From: a virus | Taxonomy: Duplodnaviria > Caudoviricetes | DNA: 64,000 nt | Virus record (IMG/VR): IMGVR_UViG_3300031555_004294 | Span: 64,001-128,000 of that record | Direction: 5' to 3' (one strand) | Part shown: positions 2,898-44,669 of the stretch, piece after piece | Numbering within the stretch: position 1 is the stretch's first letter | Layout of the letters: each line of letters opens with the position of its first letter | Notes under the pieces: generated by a model | Seen by the model: the letters and a program-made list of their open reading frames with translations, nothing else | The model's database searches: none | What the model was told of the DNA's origin: nothing | Program-made: the position numbers and the translations under genes

Positions 2898-3802
2898 TTA
2901 AGACTCCCAGATTTCTTTCATCTTACGCTTCATCTCAATGATGAGCTTATTTGTGTATAGCATCGAATAACTATCTGTAGTCATACGTGATACTATAGAC
3001 ATGGGTGAGTAGATTGCTAAAATATTCTCATCAGGATATCTTTCAGAGAAAGGCTCTTCGCCTTTAGGTAATACGTCACTAACAATTGTCTTAACAGCAG
3101 TACCATAAACAACCTTATCGCCTGTCTTCAATCTGTCTCTATGTTTTACATAGAATTCGATAATGATACCTTCAAAGTCAATACCCTTAATCTTCTCGTC
3201 TTTGATCTGATCAACTCTTGGGAAAATTGTAGATTTGTTATTGGTATTCTCTACTATCTTCTTTCTAGTATTAACTTCTTTAGCATAGCTATCGATTAGC
3301 TTTTGAATGGACTCAGAACAAATTTCTTTAGGTACATTGTAGTAAACCTTAATGTCGATTATCTCACCAGAATACTTAGCTTTGATTGAGTCTTTACCCA
3401 TATCTTCTACAAACTCAGCAAAATCATCACCCATGCTATCAAGAATTCTATTTGCATCAGCATCTTCAAAAGTATGCTCGAAGGAAATTAAACTTTCACT
3501 AGTTTTAACATGTTGATGTTTTTTAACCATTTGTAGAATGTTTGTATTAGGTGCTAGCTTCACAGTAGTTGCCATAGTTACATAAGACGACATATTTTCC
3601 GAAACCTCATTTGTAATAACAGATGAGTCCTCTAATGTATAGTCACCCTGTGCTATAGCTACTTTTGCTAGTAAACCTTGAGAGAATGTAACTTTATCAG
3701 TTTTATTACCTAAGAAGAAATCACTATTCTTTGCTAGAATGTCATTCTTCTTAAATTTTTGACCTTCTTCGAAAAGTAGGTCTTTTTTGTTGGAAATGTA
3801 AA
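2898..3802 (-). CDS. multisubunit RNA polymerase beta subunit, exon 2
   Basis: The frame is open upstream of the called ATG (3593) to 3802: (F)YISNKKD...GDYTLEDS (beta GYNFEDS motif), then LKTGDKV..KTIVS and YSPMSIVSRM (beta GDK..KGVVS and NPLGVPSRM motifs). Confidence 0.9.
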
Positions 3803-3954
3803 CATTAATATTTGCATAGAGACATTAATTCTATGACTGCTAGGCTTTTAAACCTAGATTAGACTATATCTTCTTGTACTTTCCTATTATACAATCATTT
3901 GACTGCAATATAGTCGTTGAACTTATCTTAAAAAATGTAATTTTGAAAAATTTG

Positions 3955-3966
3955 AATATATATTCT
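3955..3966 (+). promoter_or_regulatory. putative phage early promoter motif driving the intron cargo operon
   Basis: AATATATATTCT; the same motif precedes other non-structural units (36046 +, 44483 -, 49633 -, 55739 -). Confidence 0.6.
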
Positions 3967-4137
3967 AAATGTAGATAAAAGGTGCTACGAATTAGATAGT
4001 AATTCTATCCTTTAACAGAATTGGCAAATGCAGATTTGAACTCTGTGTAAAGTCCCTGTTATAGCAGTAGTTAAATGGAATTTGAGAAACAGCCTTTAAA
4101 AATTTTTATACTTTTACTAAAAGGAGTTAACTACAAA

Positions 4138-5019
4138 ATGGAAAAAACTATCTACAACGGAATGGAATTTAATTACTATCAGATCGCTGAAATCCTGCTT
4201 GGTAATATGGAAGGTATTGATACATCTAACTACACTGATCCTAAAATTTCTTATCAAGAAATGCAAAAAATTAGATTGCGACTGGTTGAAGATAAGAAAA
4301 TTAAAGATAGTTGGTATGAAAATTTTGGTTTAAAACAGATTAACGGAAAATGGATGTCTGTTAGAAATATTAAACCTTGTCCTATTTCAGAAGGAAATTG
4401 CGATAAAGGAATTCAAATTCTGTTAGGTCTTAAAAAAGGGTTAGACGTATCTATTTACGCAAAACCTGAGTTTAGCGGTTTACAGATGCAGGAAATTAGA
4501 TTAGGTCTTGAAAAAGGGTTAGACGTATCTATTTACGCAAAACCTGAATATAGTCACCATCAGATGGACAAAATTCTATTTGGTCTTGAAAGAGGGTTAG
4601 ATGTGTCTATTTACGCAAAACCTGAGTTTGACAGTTGCCAAATGAATCAAATCATATGTTTTCTTGTAAGAGGATTTGACATAAATAAATATCTTGATGC
4701 AGGAATTACTAGTTCAGATATGTTATATGAAGCTGGACGTGGTCTTAATGAAGGTATAGACTTATTCGATTATGCTAAGCAGTTAAATGATTCAACTCAG
4801 CTTTATGAGATTTTAATGGGTATTCGAAAAGGAATAGATGTATCTGTATATGCTAAACCTGAGTTTAGCACCGATCAGATGTGTCAAATCAGAATAGGCC
4901 TTGAAAGGGGATTAGACGTATCTGCATATGCAAAACCTGAACTTAAAGCTAGTGTGATGAAACAGATCAGATTCTGTCTTCAAAAAGGACTAGATATGAC
5001 CGTACATCTTAAAACTTAA
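4138..5019 (+). CDS. tandem 26-aa repeat protein (intron cargo gene 1)
   Basis: Repeats of KGLDVSIYAKPEF..QM.EIRLGLE with 78-nt DNA periodicity; AAGGAG RBS before ATG 4138. Confidence 0.8.
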   Translation: MEKTIYNGMEFNYYQIAEILLGNMEGIDTSNYTDPKISYQEMQKIRLRLVEDKKIKDSWYENFGLKQINGKWMSVRNIKPCPISEGNCDKGIQILLGLKKGLDVSIYAKPEFSGLQMQEIRLGLEKGLDVSIYAKPEYSHHQMDKILFGLERGLDVSIYAKPEFDSCQMNQIICFLVRGFDINKYLDAGITSSDMLYEAGRGLNEGIDLFDYAKQLNDSTQLYEILMGIRKGIDVSVYAKPEFSTDQMCQIRIGLERGLDVSAYAKPELKASVMKQIRFCLQKGLDMTVHLKT

Positions 5020-5050
5020 TTTTACTTGAACAAAAGGAGAACTAATAAAA

Positions 5051-5482
5051 ATGAATGTAACAACTTCAATCATTAACGAACACGGAAACCAACTCAAATT
5101 CACATCTATTCCTCGAAGATACACATCAGGAAATACAGAATATTGGAAGGAATATGATAAGAACGGTAATCTTATCTATGAAAGATTTTCCAATGACGTT
5201 GTAAGGACTCATCTCTATGATGCACAGGGTAAGTTTATCCTTACATACGATCCTTCAGAAATGGGAGCTATAGTAGCTATCCGTCTTTTCTATGATGAGT
5301 ATCGTAGTGTAATGGCAGAACTTGCTTTTGCATATGGAAGTACTCATACTATCGAATGGACTGATATAGCTCAGAGAAGAGCATTCCAGATCGGTATCAA
5401 TGGATATACTTTCATCTTTGATGAGAGAGATGTAGCTAAAGAAAAAACCTTCCAAGATTTTGTAAAAACAAAGGAGAACTAA
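5051..5482 (+). CDS. hypothetical protein, paralog of 5713-6150 (intron cargo)
   Basis: AAGGAG RBS; shares WxEYDxNGNLIxERFS and IGINxYTFIFDERD with 5713-6150. Confidence 0.8.
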   Translation: MNVTTSIINEHGNQLKFTSIPRRYTSGNTEYWKEYDKNGNLIYERFSNDVVRTHLYDAQGKFILTYDPSEMGAIVAIRLFYDEYRSVMAELAFAYGSTHTIEWTDIAQRRAFQIGINGYTFIFDERDVAKEKTFQDFVKTKEN

Positions 5483-5486
5483 CAAA

Positions 5487-5681
5487 ATGAAACTTCGTGA
5501 TGTACTCAATGTTATTAGTGGTGGCACTAATATCAGAATCTCTGTCAACTGCAATACTATCTTTTCTGGTCGAATGGCCGATGTAAAGGTAACTGATTGG
5601 ACCAATACTGTCGGTCCTTATCTGGATAATGAAGTCTACAGACTCAATACTTTCAATGGTTACATAACTATCGCTTGCTAA
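5487..5681 (+). CDS. small hypothetical protein (intron cargo)
   Basis: AAGGAG RBS, tight operon packing. Confidence 0.7.
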   Translation: MKLRDVLNVISGGTNIRISVNCNTIFSGRMADVKVTDWTNTVGPYLDNEVYRLNTFNGYITIAC

Positions 5682-5712
5682 AAATCACACAAGCAAAGGA
5701 GAATTAAACAAA

Positions 5713-6150
5713 ATGCTTGAATCTAAAACTATCATCGAAACTGAAAATGGCAATCGTCTTGAGTTTACGAATTTCACTCCTGACCAAATTAAATCCTATG
5801 GTAAGATCTGGAGGGAATATGATACCAATGGTAATCTTATTCATGAAAGATTTTCTACTGGAGTTATGAAAAACTATCTTTATGATGAGGATAATAAACT
5901 CATCGAAGAATATGATCCTATGGTAAAAGGAGCCATCAATGAAATTCGCATTTTCTATGACGAAGGTCATAAAATCAAGGCAGAACTTACTTTTGCCTTT
6001 GGTGGTACTACAATCATCGATTGGACTGATGTAACTCAAAGAGGACTCTATGAAATTGGTATCAACGCATATACTTTTATCTTTGATGAAAGAGATGCCG
6101 TTAGAGAAAGATTTTTCCAAGATTTTATAGTAACAAAGGAGACAAAATAA
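5713..6150 (+). CDS. hypothetical protein, paralog of 5051-5482 (intron cargo)
   Basis: AAGGAG RBS; similar to 5051-5482 along its length. Confidence 0.8.
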   Translation: MLESKTIIETENGNRLEFTNFTPDQIKSYGKIWREYDTNGNLIHERFSTGVMKNYLYDEDNKLIEEYDPMVKGAINEIRIFYDEGHKIKAELTFAFGGTTIIDWTDVTQRGLYEIGINAYTFIFDERDAVRERFFQDFIVTKETK

Positions 6151-6151
6151 A

Positions 6152-6595
6152 ATGTCATCTACTAATGCAGAATTCGAAATTGGAGAATTTGTAATAACAA
6201 CAGAAAAAATCCAAAATCACCATGGTTCTCTTGAAAAAGACATGGTTGTAGAAATAGTCGGTATAAACAAATCAAATCATACATACGATGTCTGTTTTGA
6301 TAGTGACGCTGGAAAGATTCTTGGAGTTCTTCGTGAAGTTAGTCATACAAGTCTCAAGAGATCTCCTATTCTTAACAGTTCTTATAGATTCACAGAATGT
6401 ACTAGAACTGCAGTAGAAAAAATAGAGCAAGCTATTTCCGTTATTTACGATCAAGATGCAAATGAAGAATGTATTAATGATCTTAAAAATGTCATTGAAC
6501 TTCTTTTTAAGGCTAGACACAATGTTCGTTTTACATTAACACCTGAGATGATCAAGAAATATGAAACACTCAACAAAGGAGAAATAACAAAATGA
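6152..6595 (+). CDS. hypothetical protein (intron cargo)
   Basis: RBS; C-terminal helix pair resembles 6592-6825. Confidence 0.7.
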   Translation: MSSTNAEFEIGEFVITTEKIQNHHGSLEKDMVVEIVGINKSNHTYDVCFDSDAGKILGVLREVSHTSLKRSPILNSSYRFTECTRTAVEKIEQAISVIYDQDANEECINDLKNVIELLFKARHNVRFTLTPEMIKKYETLNKGEITK

Positions 6596-6825
6596 AAATC
6601 AAAACAACAAATATCAATCAAGACAGCAATAAAATTGAAATCGATAACAACACCCAAAAATACATGGGTCATATCACATCTGCTATTGACAAGGCAGAAC
6701 AAGCTCTTTCGAGTATAACTTATACAAGTCATTCAGATGTAAACGAAGAGCCTATCAAGCTTATCAATAAAGCCATCGAACTTCTTGAAAAAGCTCAGGA
6801 TAGTACCATCTACAAACCTGTATAA
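6592..6825 (+). CDS. small hypothetical protein (intron cargo)
   Basis: ATGA overlap with the upstream gene, AAGGAG RBS. Confidence 0.7.
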   Translation: MKIKTTNINQDSNKIEIDNNTQKYMGHITSAIDKAEQALSSITYTSHSDVNEEPIKLINKAIELLEKAQDSTIYKPV

Positions 6826-6842
6826 AGGAGATACCACAACAT

Positions 6843-7061
6843 ATGGAAACTTTTATAATTTGCTTTAAACTTGACAATGCTTATAGGATTTTAGATCAAG
6901 TTGCCATTGTCTATGCAAGAAATCAAGACCATGCAATAAGCCTTCTTAATGCAATGTATGAGAAGTGTCAGTATGAATCAATAAAGTCCATTTACAGTGT
7001 TAGCAAATTAAGTGAAGATGGTAATCCTACTATTTTCACATATACCCCAGCTTTATATTAA
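6843..7061 (+). CDS. small hypothetical protein (intron cargo)
   Basis: AAGGAG RBS. Confidence 0.7.
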   Translation: METFIICFKLDNAYRILDQVAIVYARNQDHAISLLNAMYEKCQYESIKSIYSVSKLSEDGNPTIFTYTPALY

Positions 7062-7072
7062 GGAGAACGACT

Positions 7073-7813
7073 ATGGTTACAAAATACAATGTCATTAATT
7101 TCTTTGAAAAAAGAAAAGGTGACCCAACTGTTCCTCATACAATAGATGAGAAACATGAAAACATCATCTACAAAGATACAGGTAAAGTCCTTGCTACAAT
7201 CGATGAGTACATGGCTGCTATGAAAAAAGTACTTCATTGTGACTTTGAACTCATCTATGATGAACATCCTTCCTGTTTCTCAGTCATCCGTTGTAAGGAA
7301 TGTGGAACTGTAATCTTTGAACGTTATGATGAAGATTATGATCCAAATCTTTGCTGTCCTACTTGTGGGGGCTATAAAACTTACTTTGATTTCTGGACGA
7401 AGGAAGAAATTGATAGTGATGAGGAAAAACAAAAAGCTATCAAAAACTACGAAGAAATGCAACGTGAGTTGGATGAGTCCTATGCAAGACGACAGAAAAG
7501 AGGAGGTCTTTATGATTGGGAGATTTGGAAAAAGAGAATTGAGTTCAAGAAAACCCTTTGGAATATCTCTCTTGAATGTGATAATCTTTTCTATAGCAAA
7601 CCAAAACTTAAAGGTCTAAAACTCATTATCAAAATGAGTAAAAGAGATCCTGAATATGACGACATGTTTGTCTGGAAGAAGTCTACAAGAATTCCTCTAT
7701 CTTGGTATGCTTTCTACATACATTGTATTCTCCCATACTCTAAAACATGTCCAGAAGAATTACGCAAGTACCATTTCTGGCAGAAGAAACCTAAAGATCA
7801 GGAGGAAGGATAA
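7073..7813 (+). CDS. zinc-ribbon protein (intron cargo)
   Basis: CKECG and CPTCG pairs; AAGGAG RBS. Confidence 0.7.
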   Translation: MVTKYNVINFFEKRKGDPTVPHTIDEKHENIIYKDTGKVLATIDEYMAAMKKVLHCDFELIYDEHPSCFSVIRCKECGTVIFERYDEDYDPNLCCPTCGGYKTYFDFWTKEEIDSDEEKQKAIKNYEEMQRELDESYARRQKRGGLYDWEIWKKRIEFKKTLWNISLECDNLFYSKPKLKGLKLIIKMSKRDPEYDDMFVWKKSTRIPLSWYAFYIHCILPYSKTCPEELRKYHFWQKKPKDQEEG

Positions 7814-7816
7814 TTT

Positions 7817-8275
7817 ATGCACAACATCACTACAAGATACAAAGAGATTAAAGTTTGGTCTGCAAGTAAATTTAATCTCATCATCGCTATCGTTTTCATC
7901 GTTCTTACTGTACTGCTTGAAGCAGGAATTTTACACTGTATATTTACAGATAAAATTGGAAGTGCTGTTTTATTACAGTTTATGGTATCACCAATAACAA
8001 TTGTAGTTGCATCATGTGGAATTGGTACTTATAAACGAAGAAAAGAATTTACATTATACTTCAGCCAAATTGATGACGTTATTGATATCTCAAGACTTAA
8101 ATCTGAATATCATCTTTGCATGATTGATGGGTATGGTGTATTATTTATCAAAAACGATGATATACCTTCATATTCTGATTGGACTACTTTTGGTAGCTAT
8201 AATTCTACTTATAGAATTGAAGAAAAGTTTTTTAAAAATAGCACAATTTCTTTCATTACTAAAAAGGAGGACTAG
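7817..8275 (+). CDS. membrane protein with two TM segments (intron cargo)
   Basis: Two N-terminal hydrophobic stretches; GGAGG upstream. Confidence 0.7.
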   Translation: MHNITTRYKEIKVWSASKFNLIIAIVFIVLTVLLEAGILHCIFTDKIGSAVLLQFMVSPITIVVASCGIGTYKRRKEFTLYFSQIDDVIDISRLKSEYHLCMIDGYGVLFIKNDDIPSYSDWTTFGSYNSTYRIEEKFFKNSTISFITKKED

Positions 8276-8279
8276 AATA

Positions 8280-8450
8280 ATGAAAACCTATAGTGTAAGT
8301 ATACTTCATAAAACTGGTAGGGTTGTAAGACCTTATATCTTCAACGTTGAAGCATCAAATGAAAAAGATGCAGAGAATGAAGTCATGAGTAAAGTTAAAG
8401 CTCTTAATCTTAAAGGATCTTTAAGCGTTGATTTCGTTGAAGAAATTTAA
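8280..8450 (+). CDS. small hypothetical protein, 56 aa (intron cargo)
   Basis: AAGGAGG RBS before ATG 8280 (MKTYSV...), in frame with track ORF 8124-8450. Confidence 0.65.
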   Translation: MKTYSVSILHKTGRVVRPYIFNVEASNEKDAENEVMSKVKALNLKGSLSVDFVEEI

Positions 8451-8473
8451 CAAACAGAAAGGAAAATATCGCC

Positions 8474-8734
8474 ATGATGACTAAAACCCAATTTGCAAAA
8501 AAGATCGTTGAAGGATTTTGCAAAGATGTTGACTACAGAACTATTACTGATTGGTCTCCTTATATCTGTATGAGTAGTAGACTCGCAGTTGCATTAGAAT
8601 TCCTTGGATTGATTCCGAAGGATTCTTATACAGAATCTAGAGGAGGAATTGAAATGGTTTACTATGACAAGGAGAATAATGAGTCTGCAATTCTTTCAAC
8701 CAGAGAACTTCTTTCGTTGCTTCCTGATGAATAA
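8474..8734 (+). CDS. hypothetical protein (intron cargo)
   Basis: AAGGA RBS, 86 aa. Confidence 0.7.
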   Translation: MMTKTQFAKKIVEGFCKDVDYRTITDWSPYICMSSRLAVALEFLGLIPKDSYTESRGGIEMVYYDKENNESAILSTRELLSLLPDE

Positions 8735-8748
8735 TTAAAGTTCAAGAA

Positions 8749-8780
8749 AGTGTTAAGGGATCACTTTAAATATCCCTTCT
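8749..8780 (+). repeat. hairpin direct repeat copy 1 (copy 2 at 9159-9190)
   Basis: AGTGTTAAGGGATCACTTTAAATATCCCTTCT matches copy 2 at 30 of 32 positions. Confidence 0.85.
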
Positions 8781-8806
8781 CTAATTTATAAAACTAGAAA
8801 GGAAAT

Positions 8807-9145
8807 ATGTTAACCATGAAACGTGAATATATTGACAACGAAGAAATCATGAGTAACGATACTATTGAAATGGAGCATATCGTCACTGCAAAAAGGATTG
8901 AAAATAATATTGTGCTTTTTCAAAACGTAATTGCTAGTTTTTCAGGTGTAAAACTTACCGATGGTAAAGGCCCAAATGATCCAGATGAAGATGCATTTTG
9001 TGAGTTCAAATACAAAGATGATAAATTTTACTATAGAGATAGTCTCACAAAAGAGTTTGAAGAAGTTACATATGCTTTTTGGACGAATACTCTCTTATAC
9101 TATGTTTCTGAAGGACATAGTATTCATTATTTCAATGAAGACTAA
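8807..9145 (+). CDS. hypothetical protein (last intron cargo gene)
   Basis: AAGGA RBS; flanked by the duplicated hairpin. Confidence 0.7.
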   Translation: MLTMKREYIDNEEIMSNDTIEMEHIVTAKRIENNIVLFQNVIASFSGVKLTDGKGPNDPDEDAFCEFKYKDDKFYYRDSLTKEFEEVTYAFWTNTLLYYVSEGHSIHYFNED

Positions 9146-9158
9146 TTCATCTACATAC

Positions 9159-9196
9159 AGTGTTAAGGGATCACTATAAATGTCCCTTCTTTTTTT
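9159..9196 (+). terminator. terminator of the cargo operon, just inside the P6 arm
   Basis: AAGGGA...TCCCTT stem followed by CTTTTTTT. Confidence 0.7.
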
Positions 9197-9286
9197 ATAA
9201 TTTTTTAAGATAAGCTGCTGATTATACAAAATTTTGTATGTTCCAGCAATTAAGGAAGTTTATCAAGGTGATCAATAATAAATTTC

Positions 9287-12200
9287 AACCACCATTAGAG
9301 TTTTTACTAATACGTTCAGATATATCAATTACATCTGTCGTACCATCTTTGTAACGAATTATTACTAACTCGTTCTTTGTATCTACCTTTTCTACTACAC
9401 CATCTTGTTCTGCAATAGATACAAAGTCAGAGGATAAAGTATAAGGTAGAGTTCTTTCTATACCAGAGCCATATAAAGGTCTGGATTGTTTTTCAGTGGG
9501 AACTGAGTGTTTCGCTTGTTGCGTCTGCATTCCAATTCTCGGAGGATCCGCATGAAGTGAGGTATAGCAAGACAATAGTTCACCAGCTGTTAGCATATTA
9601 GTTGCTGCTAAGTCTTGAACGTTAGTATTTGTATCGATGAAACCAAAATTGTTAGTTACTTTAGGATTATAACTGAGCTGACGAGTTACGCCAACCTTAT
9701 TACTATCAGGTGAACTTATTCCAAGTAGACCAACCATACTTTGGTCGTAAGATCTCATTTGAGGTGTAAAGGCATCATCTAAATTAGTACCTCCGATACC
9801 CTTATAAGTTGTTGATCCAAGTCTTTCAATTTCAAGCACAGGACTAAGTGTCGAATATGCTTCAACAATAGGACTTTCAACCAACTTCTTAATTACAGCA
9901 TCAGGACTGTGTAATGAAATCTTTCTATCAGTATAACCTGACTTATAAGCATCTTTATATTCCCTAACAGCTTCAGATAACACATCATACAATGTTGCAT
10001 TAACAGTTTCTATACTACGTAGACGATAGTTTTTCATATCATTTACAGGTACATAACTGTTATCAGACAATAAAGTATTACAATGTAACAAAACTCCTAA
10101 AAGGTCATTAGGAAGTTTCATGTAATCTAAAATTTCTTTAGTCTTAGGGTCTAAAAGGAAGTTCAAAGTATTTTGGAAACCTTTAGCTAAGTTTCTCTTA
10201 CCATAACGTAAATCAAAATACTCGATGTAAATACCTTTTTCATTCATAGCTGCAAATTCAGTTTCCTTCAAGAAAGGAATGTCATTCAATCCATTCATGA
10301 GTAAACTGTTTCTTAATGGAGTAGACTTATAGTTCAGATAACCATCAGCAAATCTTATAGATGACCATAATGAAACATCGTCATCATCTAATTGCTTCTT
10401 TTTTTCTGAGAACTCGTATTCTATTCCATATCTAAGCATTACATTTTCTAAACCAAAATAGAAACCTGTAAGAATAATTAACGGAATCATAGTTCCAGTT
10501 ACTTTAGTTCTTACATACATGAACTTAGAAGAAACTTTTTGATTTAGCAGCTTCTTATAAAGTTCTGTCTCTTCATGTTGTTTAAAAATACTTAGGACTA
10601 GATTGAAAATTGAAGTATAAGTTGTACTAGCTTGAAGTTTCAAAGCTTCATTCAAGTTAGAATTGTAGGAATGAATTAAACCATCTTCTACGTTGATAGT
10701 ATAAATGATACCATTTACTTTGTTAACTCCTAGCAAGTACTCTCCTTCTGGAATTGAATCATCAATACTTCTATCTAAGAATTCTGAAATCTCAGCATTT
10801 ACTTTATCTCGGTTAAAACATAACATAACGTTTCTGTTATAGTCAAACGAGAGCATATATCTAGAAACTTCGTCATACTCCATTAGAGTTGAATATTTAG
10901 AGTTAACTTGGACGCAATTTCCTAACTTTACAGAAATCTTTCCTTTATGACTAGGTGCATCTTTCAAAATAAAATTCTTCAATTTGTCAGAGTTAGATGA
11001 AAGTTTGGAATTAAATCTCCAGAAAAACATCTTACCCTTGTCAGTAGAAATTGAAACTTCGTTTGGCTTATTTTTAGTAATTGGTAGCTTCATTAACTGT
11101 TTACCAATACTAACTTTGTGATCATTAAGATACATGAACGAATTATCATAAATGATAGGCATCTCGATGTTAACGATATGTCTATTACCCCAACCATCTT
11201 CGTAATTGACCTTAATGAGTTCTTTCTTGTTAATTTCATCTGAGATATCTTCTCTTGAGAGGTCAGTTATATAAATAGGACATTCTGGATCATTATTAAA
11301 CGCAGAAAGGACTTTAATCAAGTCTTTATCTTTTTGATTCTTAACGTAGTTTCTATCTAATTCTTTAAGAGTACAAGTTTTTACTTCCTCATTCAGTGTG
11401 TTAATGTTTATCGTTTCTGTATTAATAGAATGAACTTCATGGTCATGCAAAATGTTATCAATATTGAGTGGCTTGTTACTCACTTTAATATTGACATCAA
11501 CTTTATTTTGCTTTTCCTTAAGTCGTTCTAACTTATTTTCAGGAACTGTAGTCTGATTATTTTTCAAATTGACGAGATAATTCAAAAATCTCTCATCATT
11601 ATTAAGTTCATCTTCTAGTTCATCAACATTGTTAAAGGAAGTTGCTTTATTATCAATGGTTTTTTCAATTCTATCTAGAAGTTCTAAATCATCCGTGTTT
11701 AAAGCAATTTTGTCTGTCAGTTTTAGTCCTTTTACAATCTTATTTTTAATGGGTTTTGCTATATCAGCTTTAACCTGTTTTGATTGTAAATTCTTAATTT
11801 TTTCTGAAGATTGTTTATTTGTTACAGATAAAACTTTACTACTGGATTGAACTATTTGATTATCAGAATTCTGAATTTCTGCTTCTTCTTCCTTATCCAA
11901 CTCTATTCCATTAGAAATTTTATACAAGATGTTTGAAAGTTTCTTGAATTTAGCTAATGAAAATTTTGGATCAGAAAAGTCTACTAAAAACATTCTCGTA
12001 TTGTTTTTATCAGAAAATACGAACTTGTATTTTTTAAAGAACTCGTAATCAAAAGTTCCCTGTTTAAGCATGAAATACAAGATATTTTCAAAACTAAATA
12101 TACGTCCAGTAGTAATTAGCTCTTTAGGAATTACTTGAATGAAAACTTCAGAATAACTATTAGTTTTACCTAAAATTTCTTTTAAAAATGGTATGAATGG

Positions 12201-12617
12201 TTTTAATTTACTTTCAAAACTTTTATAAGATTTATACGTCTCTTCAAATACTTTATAATATCCATAGGTATCAAAATAAGTATTGTATCCTCCATATAAA
12301 TCTAATTTGATTCGCTTAAAAGTAATATTTGGACTTTTAACATCCATTTCTTTGTACTTTACATCTTGTAAAGTATCTACTTTTCTACCCCTACAAGAAG
12401 CTAATTTTTCTGTTTTATAAGGATAGAAGTAACCTTTTACAAATTGTTTGATAAACAGATTGGAGTTAATGATGTCATAAACATCTGATGAAGATGTATT
12501 CAACGAAAATATTAATCGACCTTTTTGTTTATTAGTATTTTCATCATTACTTAGATAGAGGTTATAATTTTTATAAAGATACAAATTTTTATCTAAATCG
12601 TAGTAATTAACCCTCAT
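9287..12617 (-). CDS. multisubunit RNA polymerase beta subunit, exon 1 (probably virion RNAP; spliced product 1411 aa)
   Basis: Beta motifs SPVLEIERLGSTTYKGIGG, SSPDSNKVGVTRQLS and HADPPRIGMQTQQAKHSVP (cf. HDDANRALMGSNMQRQAVP). The ORF stops at the intron boundary. Virion assignment is inferred from the late-type motif. Confidence 0.9.
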
Positions 12618-12648: not shown

Positions 12649-12660
12649 TAGTATTTTGTT
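12649..12660 (-). promoter_or_regulatory. putative late promoter AACA-N6-TA
   Basis: AACA-AAATAC-TA just upstream of the RNAP beta RBS; matches the AR9 late consensus. Confidence 0.6.
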
Positions 12661-14764: not shown

Positions 14765-14841
14765 TGGGGTGTAGCCAAGTGGCCTAAGGCACGAGACTTT
14801 GACTCTCGCATTCGAATGTTCAAATCATTCCACCCCAGCCA
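14765..14841 (+). tRNA. tRNA-Gln(TTG)
   Basis: Cloverleaf, anticodon loop CT-TTG-AC, encoded CCA. Confidence 0.9.
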
Positions 14842-15055
14842 ACGGTATATTTGTTAGAAGCATCGACAAGGATATGAGTTGTTGGAGTACTATGAAGAGT
14901 AAATGCGAGATTATCGCAGTTAGCCACCTAAGCAATGCGTGCATGTAATGGATATTAGTTTCAAATATTGAGTTCTCCGCCAATTCCAGAGTATGACTGA
15001 CCTTCAACAGAAAACTGTAAAACAAAGAGGGAAATAAGACATATGAAAGAGGTTT

Positions 15056-15610
15056 ATGAAAATGAGCAAATCAATGCTATTTAATTGGGCATTCAAGCGA
15101 ATTTTAGGGTTAAGAGATGTTGGTGTATTCTTTAAGGTAATGAAGGAGCGCAAAGAAATTAAAACACAAGTTAATCTTAAAGGAGCCATAAGTTCTCCTA
15201 ATCATCTTAGCGAAATCATTGTTGGTCATGATGAACAGATTGATAAATGGATTGAGCCTATGGCTGCTGGAACTGAAAGTTGCCCTTATTGGGATTGTAC
15301 AAGACTGTTCTACGGCAAGGAGGCTAACTTTGACTGGGGCGAAAAGAATATGGAATATTGGCTTGGTATGAGACAAACAGTTCTAGCTCCTATCATCCCT
15401 ATTCCGATTTGTGCTTATGAGGAAGTCTATATTCTTGGTGAATCGGATAAGGCTTTTAGAGATTGCATGAAGAAGTATGGTAAAGCTCGTGCTTTCCATG
15501 ATCACGCTGAAGAGTTTGGTGCAAAGAAGATAATTGATAAAACAAATGTCTACTTTATGCAATGTGACATTTCTTATATGAAAGACCCTGTGTGGTCTAC
15601 TTGTGAGTGA
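15056..15610 (+). CDS. hypothetical protein inside the tRNA cluster
   Basis: 184 aa, GAGG RBS. Confidence 0.65.
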   Translation: MKMSKSMLFNWAFKRILGLRDVGVFFKVMKERKEIKTQVNLKGAISSPNHLSEIIVGHDEQIDKWIEPMAAGTESCPYWDCTRLFYGKEANFDWGEKNMEYWLGMRQTVLAPIIPIPICAYEEVYILGESDKAFRDCMKKYGKARAFHDHAEEFGAKKIIDKTNVYFMQCDISYMKDPVWSTCE

Positions 15611-15746
15611 TGTAGTCGCTATACAAATGACTATCTTTTTGTGAAATTATATTTCACACAAGTGAGCCTCTGTTGTGAACAGACTCCAAGGCTACGGCGA
15701 TTGGCCTCTCGAAAGAGTTAAAAATCGCCATTTATTTCAAATAATT

Positions 15747-15837
15747 GGAGAGATACCCAAGAGGTCGAAGGGGGCGGTCTACTAAACCGCTAGGGCATGT
15801 AAATGTTGCAAGAGTTCAAATCTCTTTCTCTCCGCCA
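15747..15837 (+). tRNA. tRNA-Ser(ACT)
   Basis: Long variable arm, G discriminator, stem GCGGT/ACCGC with loop CT-ACT-AA, CCA end. Confidence 0.85.
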
Positions 15838-15888
15838 AATATTTATTAAAGTTCTCAGTAGTTTTAACCTGTTGGGAACTTTATCTAT

Positions 15889-15963
15889 GCTGGTGTGGCT
15901 CAATGGCAGAGCAGCTGATTTGTAATCAGCAGGTTGATGGTTCGAATCCGTTCACCAGCTCCA
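15889..15963 (+). tRNA. tRNA-Thr(TGT)
   Basis: Cloverleaf, loop TT-TGT-AA, CCA end. Confidence 0.93.
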
Positions 15964-15966
15964 TTT

Positions 15967-16041
15967 CGGGATGTAGCGTATTGGTTACGCACTAGTTTTG
16001 GGAACTAGATCAAGTAGGTTCGATTCCTATCATTCCGACCA
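15967..16041 (+). tRNA. tRNA-Pro(TGG)
   Basis: CGGGATG acceptor, loop TT-TGG-GA, CCA end. Confidence 0.88.
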
Positions 16042-16129
16042 GAAATATTGATTAAAGTCTTGATATTTTAAATTACTAGACTTTAAATTTTTAAAAATCT
16101 GAGTAATAAATAATTATTCAGATTTTTAT

Positions 16130-16205
16130 TCCTCCTTAGCTCAGTCGGCAGAGCACCTGACTGTTAATCAGGGTGTCGCTGGTTCAAGCCCAGCAGGGGG
16201 AGCCA
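16130..16205 (+). tRNA. tRNA-Asn(GTT)
   Basis: Cloverleaf, loop CT-GTT-AA, GCCA end. Confidence 0.93.
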
Positions 16206-16247
16206 TATTAAAGTCTTGATAAATTAAATCATCAAGACTTTACATTT

Positions 16248-16323
16248 GCAGTAGTAACTCAATTGGTAGAGTGCTAGCCTTCCAAGCTGGATGTCGCGAG
16301 TTCGAGCCTCGTCTACTGCTCCA
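16248..16323 (+). tRNA. tRNA-Gly(TCC)
   Basis: Cloverleaf, loop CT-TCC-AA, TCCA end. Confidence 0.93.
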
Positions 16324-16467
16324 ACAAAAAATTTAAATCAAGTTTTAAATACATATTTTAAACTTGAAAAAAAAGGAAACGTATTAAAGTAAATTTTAAA
16401 TACATATTCTTATTCTGTAAAAAGAAAATGAATTACATGACAAATGTTAACACTTTCCTTTACATAT

Positions 16468-16554
16468 GGGGGTATGGCGGAACAGGTAGACGCAAGGGAC
16501 TTAAAATCCCTCGGTAGAGATACTGTGAGGATTCGAATTCCTCTACCCCCACCA
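16468..16554 (+). tRNA. tRNA-Leu(TAA)
   Basis: Long variable arm, loop CT-TAA-AA, ACCA end. Confidence 0.93.
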
Positions 16555-16607
16555 CTCGTTTAGGTAATTCTATCCTATAATAGAATTACCTAAACATTTT
16601 TATTTAT

Positions 16608-16684
16608 GGGACATTAGCTCAGTTGGTCAGAGCATTCGGCTCATAACCGAACGGTCCAAGGTTCGAGACCTTGATGTCCCACCA
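16608..16684 (+). tRNA. tRNA-CAT (probably Ile2, possibly elongator Met)
   Basis: Loop CT-CAT-AA; CGG/CCG anticodon stem resembles Firmicute tRNA-Ile2. Confidence 0.85.
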
Positions 16685-16689
16685 TATAT

Positions 16690-16765
16690 GATCCATTAGC
16701 TCAGATGGCAGAGCACATGACTTTTAATCATGGTGTCCGGAGTTCGACTCTCCGATGGATCACCA
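16690..16765 (+). tRNA. tRNA-Lys(TTT)
   Basis: Cloverleaf, loop CT-TTT-AA, ACCA end. Confidence 0.93.
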
Positions 16766-43982: not shown

Positions 43983-44669
43983 AAATTTAACTGCGTTTCA
44001 ATAGCATAAACTATTGTCAAAAATTTCTTAATTGCTGGGAACATACAAAAAATTTGTACTATCAGCAGTCATTTATAAAAAAAAAAAGAAAGCCTTATAG
44101 AGACTTTCTTTTTTGTATGGAAATACTTTATTCTGTAACTTCCTCAACAGTTGTTTCTTCTGTAAGAGTATCAGGTTTAATTTCTACCAACTCTTCTTCA
44201 GAAGTAACTTCCTCAGTTACAGTTCCTTCATCGTTATTTTCAGTTTCAGCATTTGCTACATCAGATTGGATTTCCTCCAAGATGTTAGCAACCTGTTCCT
44301 TGAGCTTTGCCTTCTTCTTCTTTCTGATGTGGCAAACAGTACCTACTGCTCCTGCAACCAAAGCAACAGCTCCTACTCCAATAGCGATTACACCAATAGT
44401 CTTTCCGTTCATTTTTTAGTTCTCCTTTTTAAATAAAAATTTTTGTTAGAATAATTTATGTATTTCCTTCTAACTCACAATAAGAATATATATTTGAAAA
44501 GTTGAACTTTACGATTTTTATAAATGATTCAACGACTATATATTACATTCAGAATTTGAATGGAAATTGAAATGATCCTTAACACTAGGATTTTGATATA
44601 GTCTCAACTTCTATGGAAACATAGAGAATATTTTACATGAACTAATGACTCATGTATCAAGATTTTTTG
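43983..44669 (+). mobile_element. group I intron (687 nt) in terminase, with an antisense gene in the P6 loop
   Basis: Exon end GGACGU pairs with IGS GCGUUU. P AAUUGCUGGGAA (44030-44041), Q AUCAGCAG (44061-44068), R UUCAACGACUAUA (44528-44540), S GAUAUAGUCU (44595-44604), P9 CUAUG-GAAA-CAUAG, terminal G 44669. Join restores RGR-GLTSPLIYYDE. Confidence 0.93.
44128..44412 (-). CDS. small single-pass membrane protein (terminase intron cargo)
   Basis: AAGGAG RBS, N-terminal TM, basic patch, acidic tail; early-type motif at 44483-44494 and hairpin at about 44082-44114. Confidence 0.8.
   Translation of the reverse strand: MNGKTIGVIAIGVGAVALVAGAVGTVCHIRKKKKAKLKEQVANILEEIQSDVANAETENNDEGTVTEEVTSEEELVEIKPDTLTEETTVEEVTE

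Follow-up and report, generated by a model that had tools for sequence, protein, structure and literature searches.

A predicted group I intron with a twelve-gene antisense unit in its P6 loop interrupts the gene for beta-N of the virion RNA polymerase in an AR9-like jumbo phage

Group I introns of phages are the textbook 'parasites within parasites' and carry at most one homing endonuclease gene. The td/nrdB-type (IA2) introns of phage T4 reside in essential genes, have a stop codon near the 5' splice site and carry an open reading frame (ORF) with its own promoter in the P6 loop. This cargo consists of one homing endonuclease gene of about 0.7 kb, which is encoded on the sense strand, and the helices P2 and P8 are present in these introns. 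A precedent for the element described here comes from the AR9/PBS1 jumbo phages, in which an intron of the late gene g189 houses the early gene g190 and a promoter for it (PMC5312081; KU878088). According to its annotation, g189 encodes the N-terminal portion (beta-N) of the beta subunit of the virion RNA polymerase, and its coding sequence is joined from six pieces. The early promoter of AR9, AAATATATATTAT-N6-G, has been defined experimentally and is read by the injected virion polymerase (PMC5312081). Here, an orthologue of g189 is described, which is interrupted by a 5,484-nt insertion with the anatomy of a group I intron (positions 9286-3803, minus strand). It is located in a stretch of 64,000 nt, hereafter called the window, to which all coordinates refer unless stated otherwise and which belongs to a 156,854-bp viral contig of the IMG/VR database with an estimated completeness of about 61%. 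The P6 loop of the predicted intron comprises 5,263 nt and harbours twelve plus-strand genes, which span positions 4138-9145 and are thus oriented opposite to the beta gene.

The window intron and the g190-bearing intron of AR9/PBS1 share the host gene and the phage group, and in both a late gene contains an intron-borne, putatively early unit that is equipped with an early promoter of the AAATATATATTAT type. However, the cargo of the AR9 intron is one HNH homing endonuclease gene with the same orientation as the host gene, whereas the window intron contains twelve non-endonuclease genes on the opposite strand and a terminator-like structure of its own; its loop is about five times longer, and P2 and P8 are missing. 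The multi-gene, non-endonuclease, antisense cargo, the own terminator and the longer loop also distinguish it from the ORF-bearing P6-loop introns of T4, with whose td/nrdB-type members it shares a P7.1-type extra hairpin between P7 and P3' and an insertion in the P6 region. Group I introns that contain genes and are far larger are known solely from the mitochondria of hexacorals, where the intron ND5-717 carries many ordinary genes in a peripheral loop, reaches 18-19 kb and restores an essential gene upon its removal (PMC6545197). In contrast to the window intron, ND5-717 resides in an organelle rather than in a phage, holds its cargo in P8 instead of P6 and is removed by back-splicing (PMC6545197). 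Non-endonuclease cargo and an insertion that is made harmless by splicing are also features of the IStrons, e.g., those of Clostridioides, in which a group I intron is fused to an IS605/IS607 transposon (bioRxiv 10.1101/2023.11.20.567912). While the cargo of IStrons is a mobilising transposase/TnpB module, neither of these domains was detected in the cargo proteins of the window, whose genes are antisense to the host gene and accompanied by an early promoter motif and a terminator-like hairpin. Full-text searches of the literature yielded no description of a phage group I intron with antisense multi-gene cargo, and the phage introns that appear in recent reviews are all endonuclease-bearing.

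On the minus strand, exon 1 ends with ...AAT GGT GGT T at position 9287 and its ORF with the residues NSNGG. In the unspliced RNA, the last base of the exon (T) and the first two bases of the intron (GA) form an in-frame stop codon exactly at the 5' splice site. The reading frame of exon 2 is open from 3824 to 2898, and its earliest ATG, GTG or TTG codon occurs only at 3593. Joining position 9287 to position 3802 creates a TTT codon and a protein of 1411 amino acids (1110 + 1 + 300) with the sequence ...SKNSNGG-F-YISNKK...; the predicted exon junction at the RNA/DNA level consists of AATGGTGGTT followed by TTTACATTTCC. In tblastn searches, the polymerase was most similar to proteins named 'RNA polymerase beta subunit' in Bacillus phages of the AR9/PBS1 type and in jumbo phages of Staphylococcus, Listeria and Yersinia. 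Exon 2 shows 47% identity to the AR9/PBS1 protein, and its product has a weak match to the Pfam family RNA_pol_Rpb2_6. In the intronless homologues, namely those of the Staphylococcus phages SA1, S6 and UFV_DC4, the Listeria phage LPJP1, the Yersinia phage phiR1-37 and the metagenome loci L006 and L008, the gap between the two tblastn pieces amounts to exactly one codon, and the phenylalanine that follows glycine at the junction is conserved (AGFF, GGFC, GGFY), the junction of these homologues reading AGFF or GGFC. Splicing as predicted would thus rebuild a conserved motif with single-residue precision. The initial annotation had proposed that removal of 3803-9286 fuses two beta fragments in frame as NSNGG-F-YISN to give 1411 amino acids and had named an alignment with intronless homologues as a check; its coordinates turned out to be exact, and the homologues run continuously through the junction.

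As judged from its sequence, the insertion is a genuine group I intron of the IA-like type with a P7.1 hairpin, whose splicing is predicted, and it shows every defining feature tested except P8 (Table 1). These features include a P1 helix with a U.G pair, the omega G and a P3-P7 core in the order of the P3/P7 pseudoknot. The P1 pairing is identical in L003, a relative on a 319,626-bp IMG/VR contig, whose exon 2 protein is 85% identical to that of the window. The segments UUCAACGACUA and AAGAUAUAGUC, with which J6/7 and J8/7 were compared to the consensus, agree with that of the Rfam family RF00028, and between positions 3700 and 9400 no inverted repeat of 14 nt or more other than the P6 arms is perfectly complementary. 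An Rfam search of the whole window at the gathering threshold returned only tRNAs; the whole intron is not scorable by Rfam because of the 5.3-kb insert. Usable matches to RF00028 in truncated mode required cutting the stretch at the P6 arms, while scans with extra loop sequence gave weak partial matches. After cutting, the 3' half matched model positions 122-253 (29.7 bits, E = 2.6e-6) and the 5' half model positions 1-113 (13.5 bits, E = 0.13). The minimum free energy fold of the cargo-deleted intron recovers P1, P4-P5, P6, P7 with P7.1, P9 and P9.1, with -65.2 kcal/mol compared to -42.9 +/- 4.2 kcal/mol for dinucleotide shuffles (z = -5.3). The intron halves lie where the initial annotation had placed them, with the 5' half (P1 and internal guide sequence, P, Q) abutting exon 1 and the 3' half (R, S, P9, terminal G) abutting exon 2. 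Two other pairings were tried and rejected: an alternative P3 (UUGAU/GUCAA) is broken in L003 by a G-to-U change, which at the same time improves the CUUCC/GGAAAG pairing, and an alternative P8 (UUGUAU/GUACAA) would compete with P7.1 and place P3' in its loop.

Comparison with L003 revealed that the 5' and 3' halves of the intron are 91.9% and 88.9% identical, respectively, and that the stretch from P6' to P7' is equal at 79 of 80 positions. In the adjacent exon, 71.4% of the third codon positions are identical compared to 92-96% of the first and second positions. All differences between the two introns are either located in loops and joining regions or are compensatory, the latter being a change from A-U to U-A in P6, from G-C to A-U in P9 and from C-G to U-A in P9.1. 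P3 covaries among eight family members, in which the pairings CUUCC/GGAAAG, AUUCC/GGAAU, AUUUC/GAAAU, UUUCUU/GAGAAA, AUUCUUU/AAAGAAU and UCUCUU/AAGAGA occur. These patterns indicate that both exons and the intron core are under purifying selection. Conservation of the core and covariation are therefore strong evidence for a functional ribozyme core.

The motif that precedes the cargo genes follows the pattern of AR9-type early promoters and is a putative promoter. Matches to the early promoter motif are found 13 times compared to 5.2 expected, and the contig holds seven motifs of the form aaATATATATT(C/A)T-N6-G/A, the cargo promoter motif being one of them. L003 keeps the motif at the same place. 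The terminator-like hairpin at the other end of the cargo (repeat D6) has a T-run in the cargo direction only and appears in the fold as an extension of P6. A scan for sigma-70-type promoters and terminators was uninformative for this phage. A copy of the hairpin with 94% identity (8749-8780 versus 9159-9190) is present, so that the last cargo gene is flanked on both sides, and further copies are located in the L003 introns; this duplication suggests that the cargo genes were gained module by module. Most cargo genes start in a common ribosome-binding site (RBS) context, AACAAAGGAGAA..AAAATG (repeats D3/D4). The twelve RBS-bearing opposite-strand genes with a promoter motif at one end and a terminator at the other, which had been noted from the sequence before, correspond to twelve plus-strand ORFs, the motif at 3954-3974 and the hairpin at 9165-9206. 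None of the 12 cargo proteins reached the cutoff of any family in Pfam, PHROG or NCBIfam, and searches of these collections revealed no homing endonuclease families (HNH, GIY-YIG, LAGLIDADG or other) among them. Gene 1, whose product consists of repeats (GLDVSIYAKPEF...), falls into a large family of uncharacterised proteins; it has 568 homologues, which are mostly hypothetical proteins of Clostridia, some of them fused to FapA-like domains. Genes 2 and 8 had no tblastn match in cultured phages, and all look-alikes of the gene 8 product in the ESM Atlas stayed under the meaningful score.

Introns of the same layout recur in relatives, in a sister intron of the window and at another site of the same L003 gene (Table 1). 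The second intron of L003 encodes an antisense protein of 397 amino acids with about eight Myb/SANT-like repeats. The sister intron carries only one antisense gene for a small membrane protein in a loop of about 0.45 kb, compared to the twelve genes of the window intron; this gene is framed by the early promoter motif known from the window intron (44483-44494, minus strand) and by a hairpin with A-runs and T-runs next to it. The intron of the cultured Bacillus phage vB_BpuM-BpSp has two separate insertions, both antisense: gp247 occupies the P6 loop, and gp246 is found downstream of the P7 5' strand, where it probably sits within the P7.1 loop. The exons are listed in the BpSp record as separate 'RNA-polymerase beta-subunit' and hypothetical ORFs. 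The group I introns of AR9 are recognised by Rfam, and the window cargo shows no homology to the intron ORFs of AR9 or BpSp. The intron of L007 possesses a canonical core including P8, and its P6 loop spans 7,401 nt and accommodates about 12 antisense ORFs; two small sense ORFs also occur, an early-promoter-like motif adjoins the P6 3' arm, a bidirectional-looking terminator is found at 1496-1529 of L007, and at least three more introns follow in the same gene. A metagenome scan yielded three distant relatives, and an exact search of IMG/VR for the conserved 3' core retrieved the L003 contig only. P6 has a length of 11-17 bp in the cargo-bearing introns versus 5-7 bp in three compact introns, which have no RF00028 match at E <=0.01; these lengths fit a role of P6 as a clamp, although the sample is small. 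The sequences thus indicate that the frame of promoter, P6 and terminator is kept, whereas the content of the cargo differs between relatives. This agrees with the proposal of the initial annotation that the intron is a harbour for accessory genes, the attribute 'neutral' being inferred. Its statement that the arrangement was not recognisable as a described one agrees with the literature searches; however, the locus is not unique, as demonstrated by the sister intron, L003, BpSp and L007.

Table 1. Positions of the exons, intron elements, cargo genes and related introns
Feature	Position	Strand	Remarks
Exon 1, beta-N	9287..12617	-	1110 codons and base 1 of the junction codon; ORF and tblastn
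Exon 2, beta-N	2898..3802	-	bases 2 and 3 of the junction codon, then 300 codons and the stop
Match to AR9 late-promoter motif AACA-N6-TA (AACAAAATACTA)	12649..12660	-	32 nt 5' of the beta start codon
Intron 5' half	9200..9286	-	87 nt; guide, P3 5' strand, P4, P5, P6 5' arm
Intron 3' half	3803..3936	-	134 nt; P6 3' arm to terminal G
P1	GGUGGUU 9293-9287 / internal guide GAUCACC 9273-9267	-	7/7 pairs; U9287.G9273 at the cleavage site
P3	9257-9254 / 3884-3881	-	
P4	9248-9244 / 9220-9216	-	
P5 hairpin	9239-9224	-	
P6	9214-9200 / 3936-3922	-	15 perfect pairs
J6/7		-	UUCAAC
J8/7		-	AAGAUAU
P7	3915-3910 / 3867-3862	-	
P7.1 hairpin	3907-3890	-	
P9	3857-3840	-	
P9.1	3835-3815	-	
Terminal (omega) G	3803	-	directly before exon 2; same in L003
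AR9-type early promoter motif GAATATATATTCT-N6-A	3954..3974	+	18 nt inside the P6 3' arm, facing the cargo
Cargo gene 1	4138-5019	+	293 aa, 26-aa repeats
Cargo gene 2	5051-5482	+	paralogue of gene 4
Cargo gene 3	5487-5681	+	
Cargo gene 4	5713-6150	+	paralogue of gene 2 (repeat D2)
Cargo gene 5	6152-6595	+	
Cargo gene 6	6592-6825	+	38% identical homologue in the L003 cargo
Cargo gene 7	6843-7061	+	
Cargo gene 8	7073-7813	+	zinc ribbon
Cargo gene 9	7817-8275	+	membrane-like
Cargo gene 10	8281-8450	+	
Cargo gene 11	8474-8734	+	
Cargo gene 12	8807-9145	+	
Intrinsic-terminator-like hairpin and T-rich run	9159..9206	+	stem 9165-9170/9183-9188, just inside the P6 5' arm
Sister intron	~43,983-44,669	+	nearly identical P4-P5; P6 11-13 bp; P2 and P8 present
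L003 intron	same site		four antisense genes, only one homologous to a window gene
L003 second intron	L003:6015-7565		~80 codons upstream; same hairpin element; 16-bp P6
Intron of Bacillus phage vB_BpuM-BpSp (KT895374)	L001:1660-3300		same codon as the window intron
L007 intron (RCUE01000010.1)	L007:1195-8925		7.7 kb; same polymerase gene, other site; contig of 258,624 bp from a distant jumbo phage
L005 compact introns	genome C1:113250-113600, 117350-117680, 118860-119180		no cargo; members of this intron family; outside the window, same contig

From the anatomy, conservation and covariation of the core and the turnover of its cargo, the locus is probably a group I intron, the P6 loop of which is filled by a self-contained opposite-strand early unit and which is spliced in cis from the late pre-mRNA of the gene for beta-N of the virion RNA polymerase. 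In the early phase of infection, the injected virion polymerase would transcribe the cargo from its own promoter and halt at the terminator. Late in infection, the non-virion polymerase would read the beta gene through the whole intron, in which the cargo would be present as antisense, untranslated RNA. The long P6, together with P3 and P7, would bring the two core halves of 90-130 nt together, and the ribozyme would join U9287 to U3802, thereby restoring GG-F-Y and the 1,411-aa subunit. Since its contents would be spliced out, the loop could serve as a tolerated slot for accessory genes in an essential, highly conserved gene.

A number of observations weigh against this reading. P8 is part of the canonical group I catalytic domain; however, P3' and J8/7 are separated by just six nucleotides (UACAAG) in the window as well as in L003 (region 3881-3867 of the window), and P2 is likewise absent from both introns (region 9266-9258 of the window). 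All other family members examined possess P8, and the sister intron and one of the compact introns (compact intron c) also have P2. Because P2 and P8 contact one another in many group I introns, both may have been lost jointly; autonomous self-splicing is not assured for a core that lacks them. The gathering score of RF00028 is 50 bits, which neither half reaches alone (29.7 and 13.5 bits). The comparison is based on a small set consisting of one close relative and few distant ones. The late-promoter-like motif 5' of the beta gene, 3' of which the RBS GAAAGGAGGAG stands, is too short to carry weight and is only a lead: the window contains 125 copies of the AR9 late-promoter motif versus 138 expected and thus no enrichment, which is why the motif is unable to decide between cis- and trans-splicing. 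Transcription through 5.3 kb of antisense, untranslated sequence and the subsequent folding of a split core is demanding, and pairing of the antisense RNA with leftover cargo mRNA could interfere.

Instead of being one long RNA, the intron may be split, with halves on separate RNAs that assemble via the long P6, P3 and P7 and are trans-spliced; this is rather unlikely. The two RNAs could arise by independent transcription, by termination in the loop or by cleavage of the loop, e.g., of its duplex with cargo mRNA, and a long-loop core could work as two RNA pieces if the loop was cut. The unusually long P6 of the cargo-bearing members is expected for a helix that holds two pieces together, and trans-spliced group I introns are mentioned as natural elements of organelles (PMC4779616). 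The hairpins next to the 5' half of the sister intron and of the L007 intron, which are preceded by A-runs and followed by T-runs, could stop transcription in the sense direction; the window hairpin, however, has no U-run after it in the beta direction. Furthermore, the sole exact minus-strand late-promoter motif within 3937-9200 is located at 8743-8754, far from the 3' half. The stretch between the early promoter and gene 1 is only 58% conserved with L003, so that nothing points to a promoter dedicated to the 3' half. Scans for promoter and terminator motifs do not clearly speak for separate RNAs.

It is improbable that no splicing takes place and that the cassette has split or killed the beta-N gene, which would then give rise to two polypeptides or be a pseudogene in a defective or complemented phage. 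Such a fate would be compatible with the stop codon of exon 1 exactly at the junction and with the core without P8, and phages of the phiKZ/AR9 type already encode beta and beta' by separate genes according to their annotation. With a contig that is about 61% complete, a second copy of the gene is possible, but the contig itself contains exon 2 only once. The first 70 conserved codons of exon 2 contain no ATG, GTG or TTG, and an RBS is missing; moreover, the interruption cuts through a conserved motif that is uninterrupted in every intronless homologue, and purifying selection acts on both exons as well as on the ribozyme core in the two diverged phages. The lack of a start codon and the selection on the core thus make an unspliced split gene unlikely. 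A misjoining of the cassette into the beta gene during assembly, e.g., via the hairpin element that is repeated at 8749-8780 and 9159-9190 and close to which short contigs of other runs break, is very improbable even though one contig of run X1 appears to join 3934 to 9159 and to bypass the cassette, because the independent, diverged L003 contig shows this layout with a different cargo, both loop borders are covered by tiled contigs of four other runs at 100% identity (3905-4462, 8759-9188 and 9171-9309), and the intron halves, each of which adjoins its own exon, need each other to form P3, P6 and P7. The X1 joint, which is derived from metagenome DNA and has a short side of 30 nt, weakly hints at a possible cargo-free allele or close relative, in which the hairpin alone occupies the P6 loop; the 3934/9159 junction had no match in IMG/VR.

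If splicing of the window intron is confirmed, a ribozyme of a bacterial virus would assemble across more than 5 kb (7.4 kb in L007), and introns would represent insertion-tolerant slots for accessory genes inside essential genes. Such genes would have been systematically missed in jumbo phages or mis-annotated as 'split polymerase genes', as seen for BpSp. There is about an even chance that the group I introns of AR9-like jumbo phages act as gene-cassette platforms, in which the P6-loop frame swaps between one and about twelve accessory genes in introns of up to 7.7 kb, the extended P6 clamp lets the split core assemble and the siting in conserved essential genes provides homology for transfer. 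If so, the flanking homology of the most conserved essential genes, such as that of the virion RNA polymerase, would aid the transfer of cargo between co-infecting phages, and viruses would have a new route to carry and trade accessory genes. These introns would also be the largest type of group I intron found described for phages or bacteria. The window intron also lends itself as a natural system in which long-range or bimolecular folding of ribozymes and a core without P8 can be studied. The cultured phage BpSp would provide an experimental system that is ready to use.

The contig of the window, which comes from an uncultured giant gut phage, has a G+C content of about 30%, and DNA of the stretch is present in several metagenomes of animal faeces; megablast gave no match to cultured phages. 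A cluster of eight tRNA genes is located on the plus strand at 14765-16762, a few kilobases from the polymerase gene.

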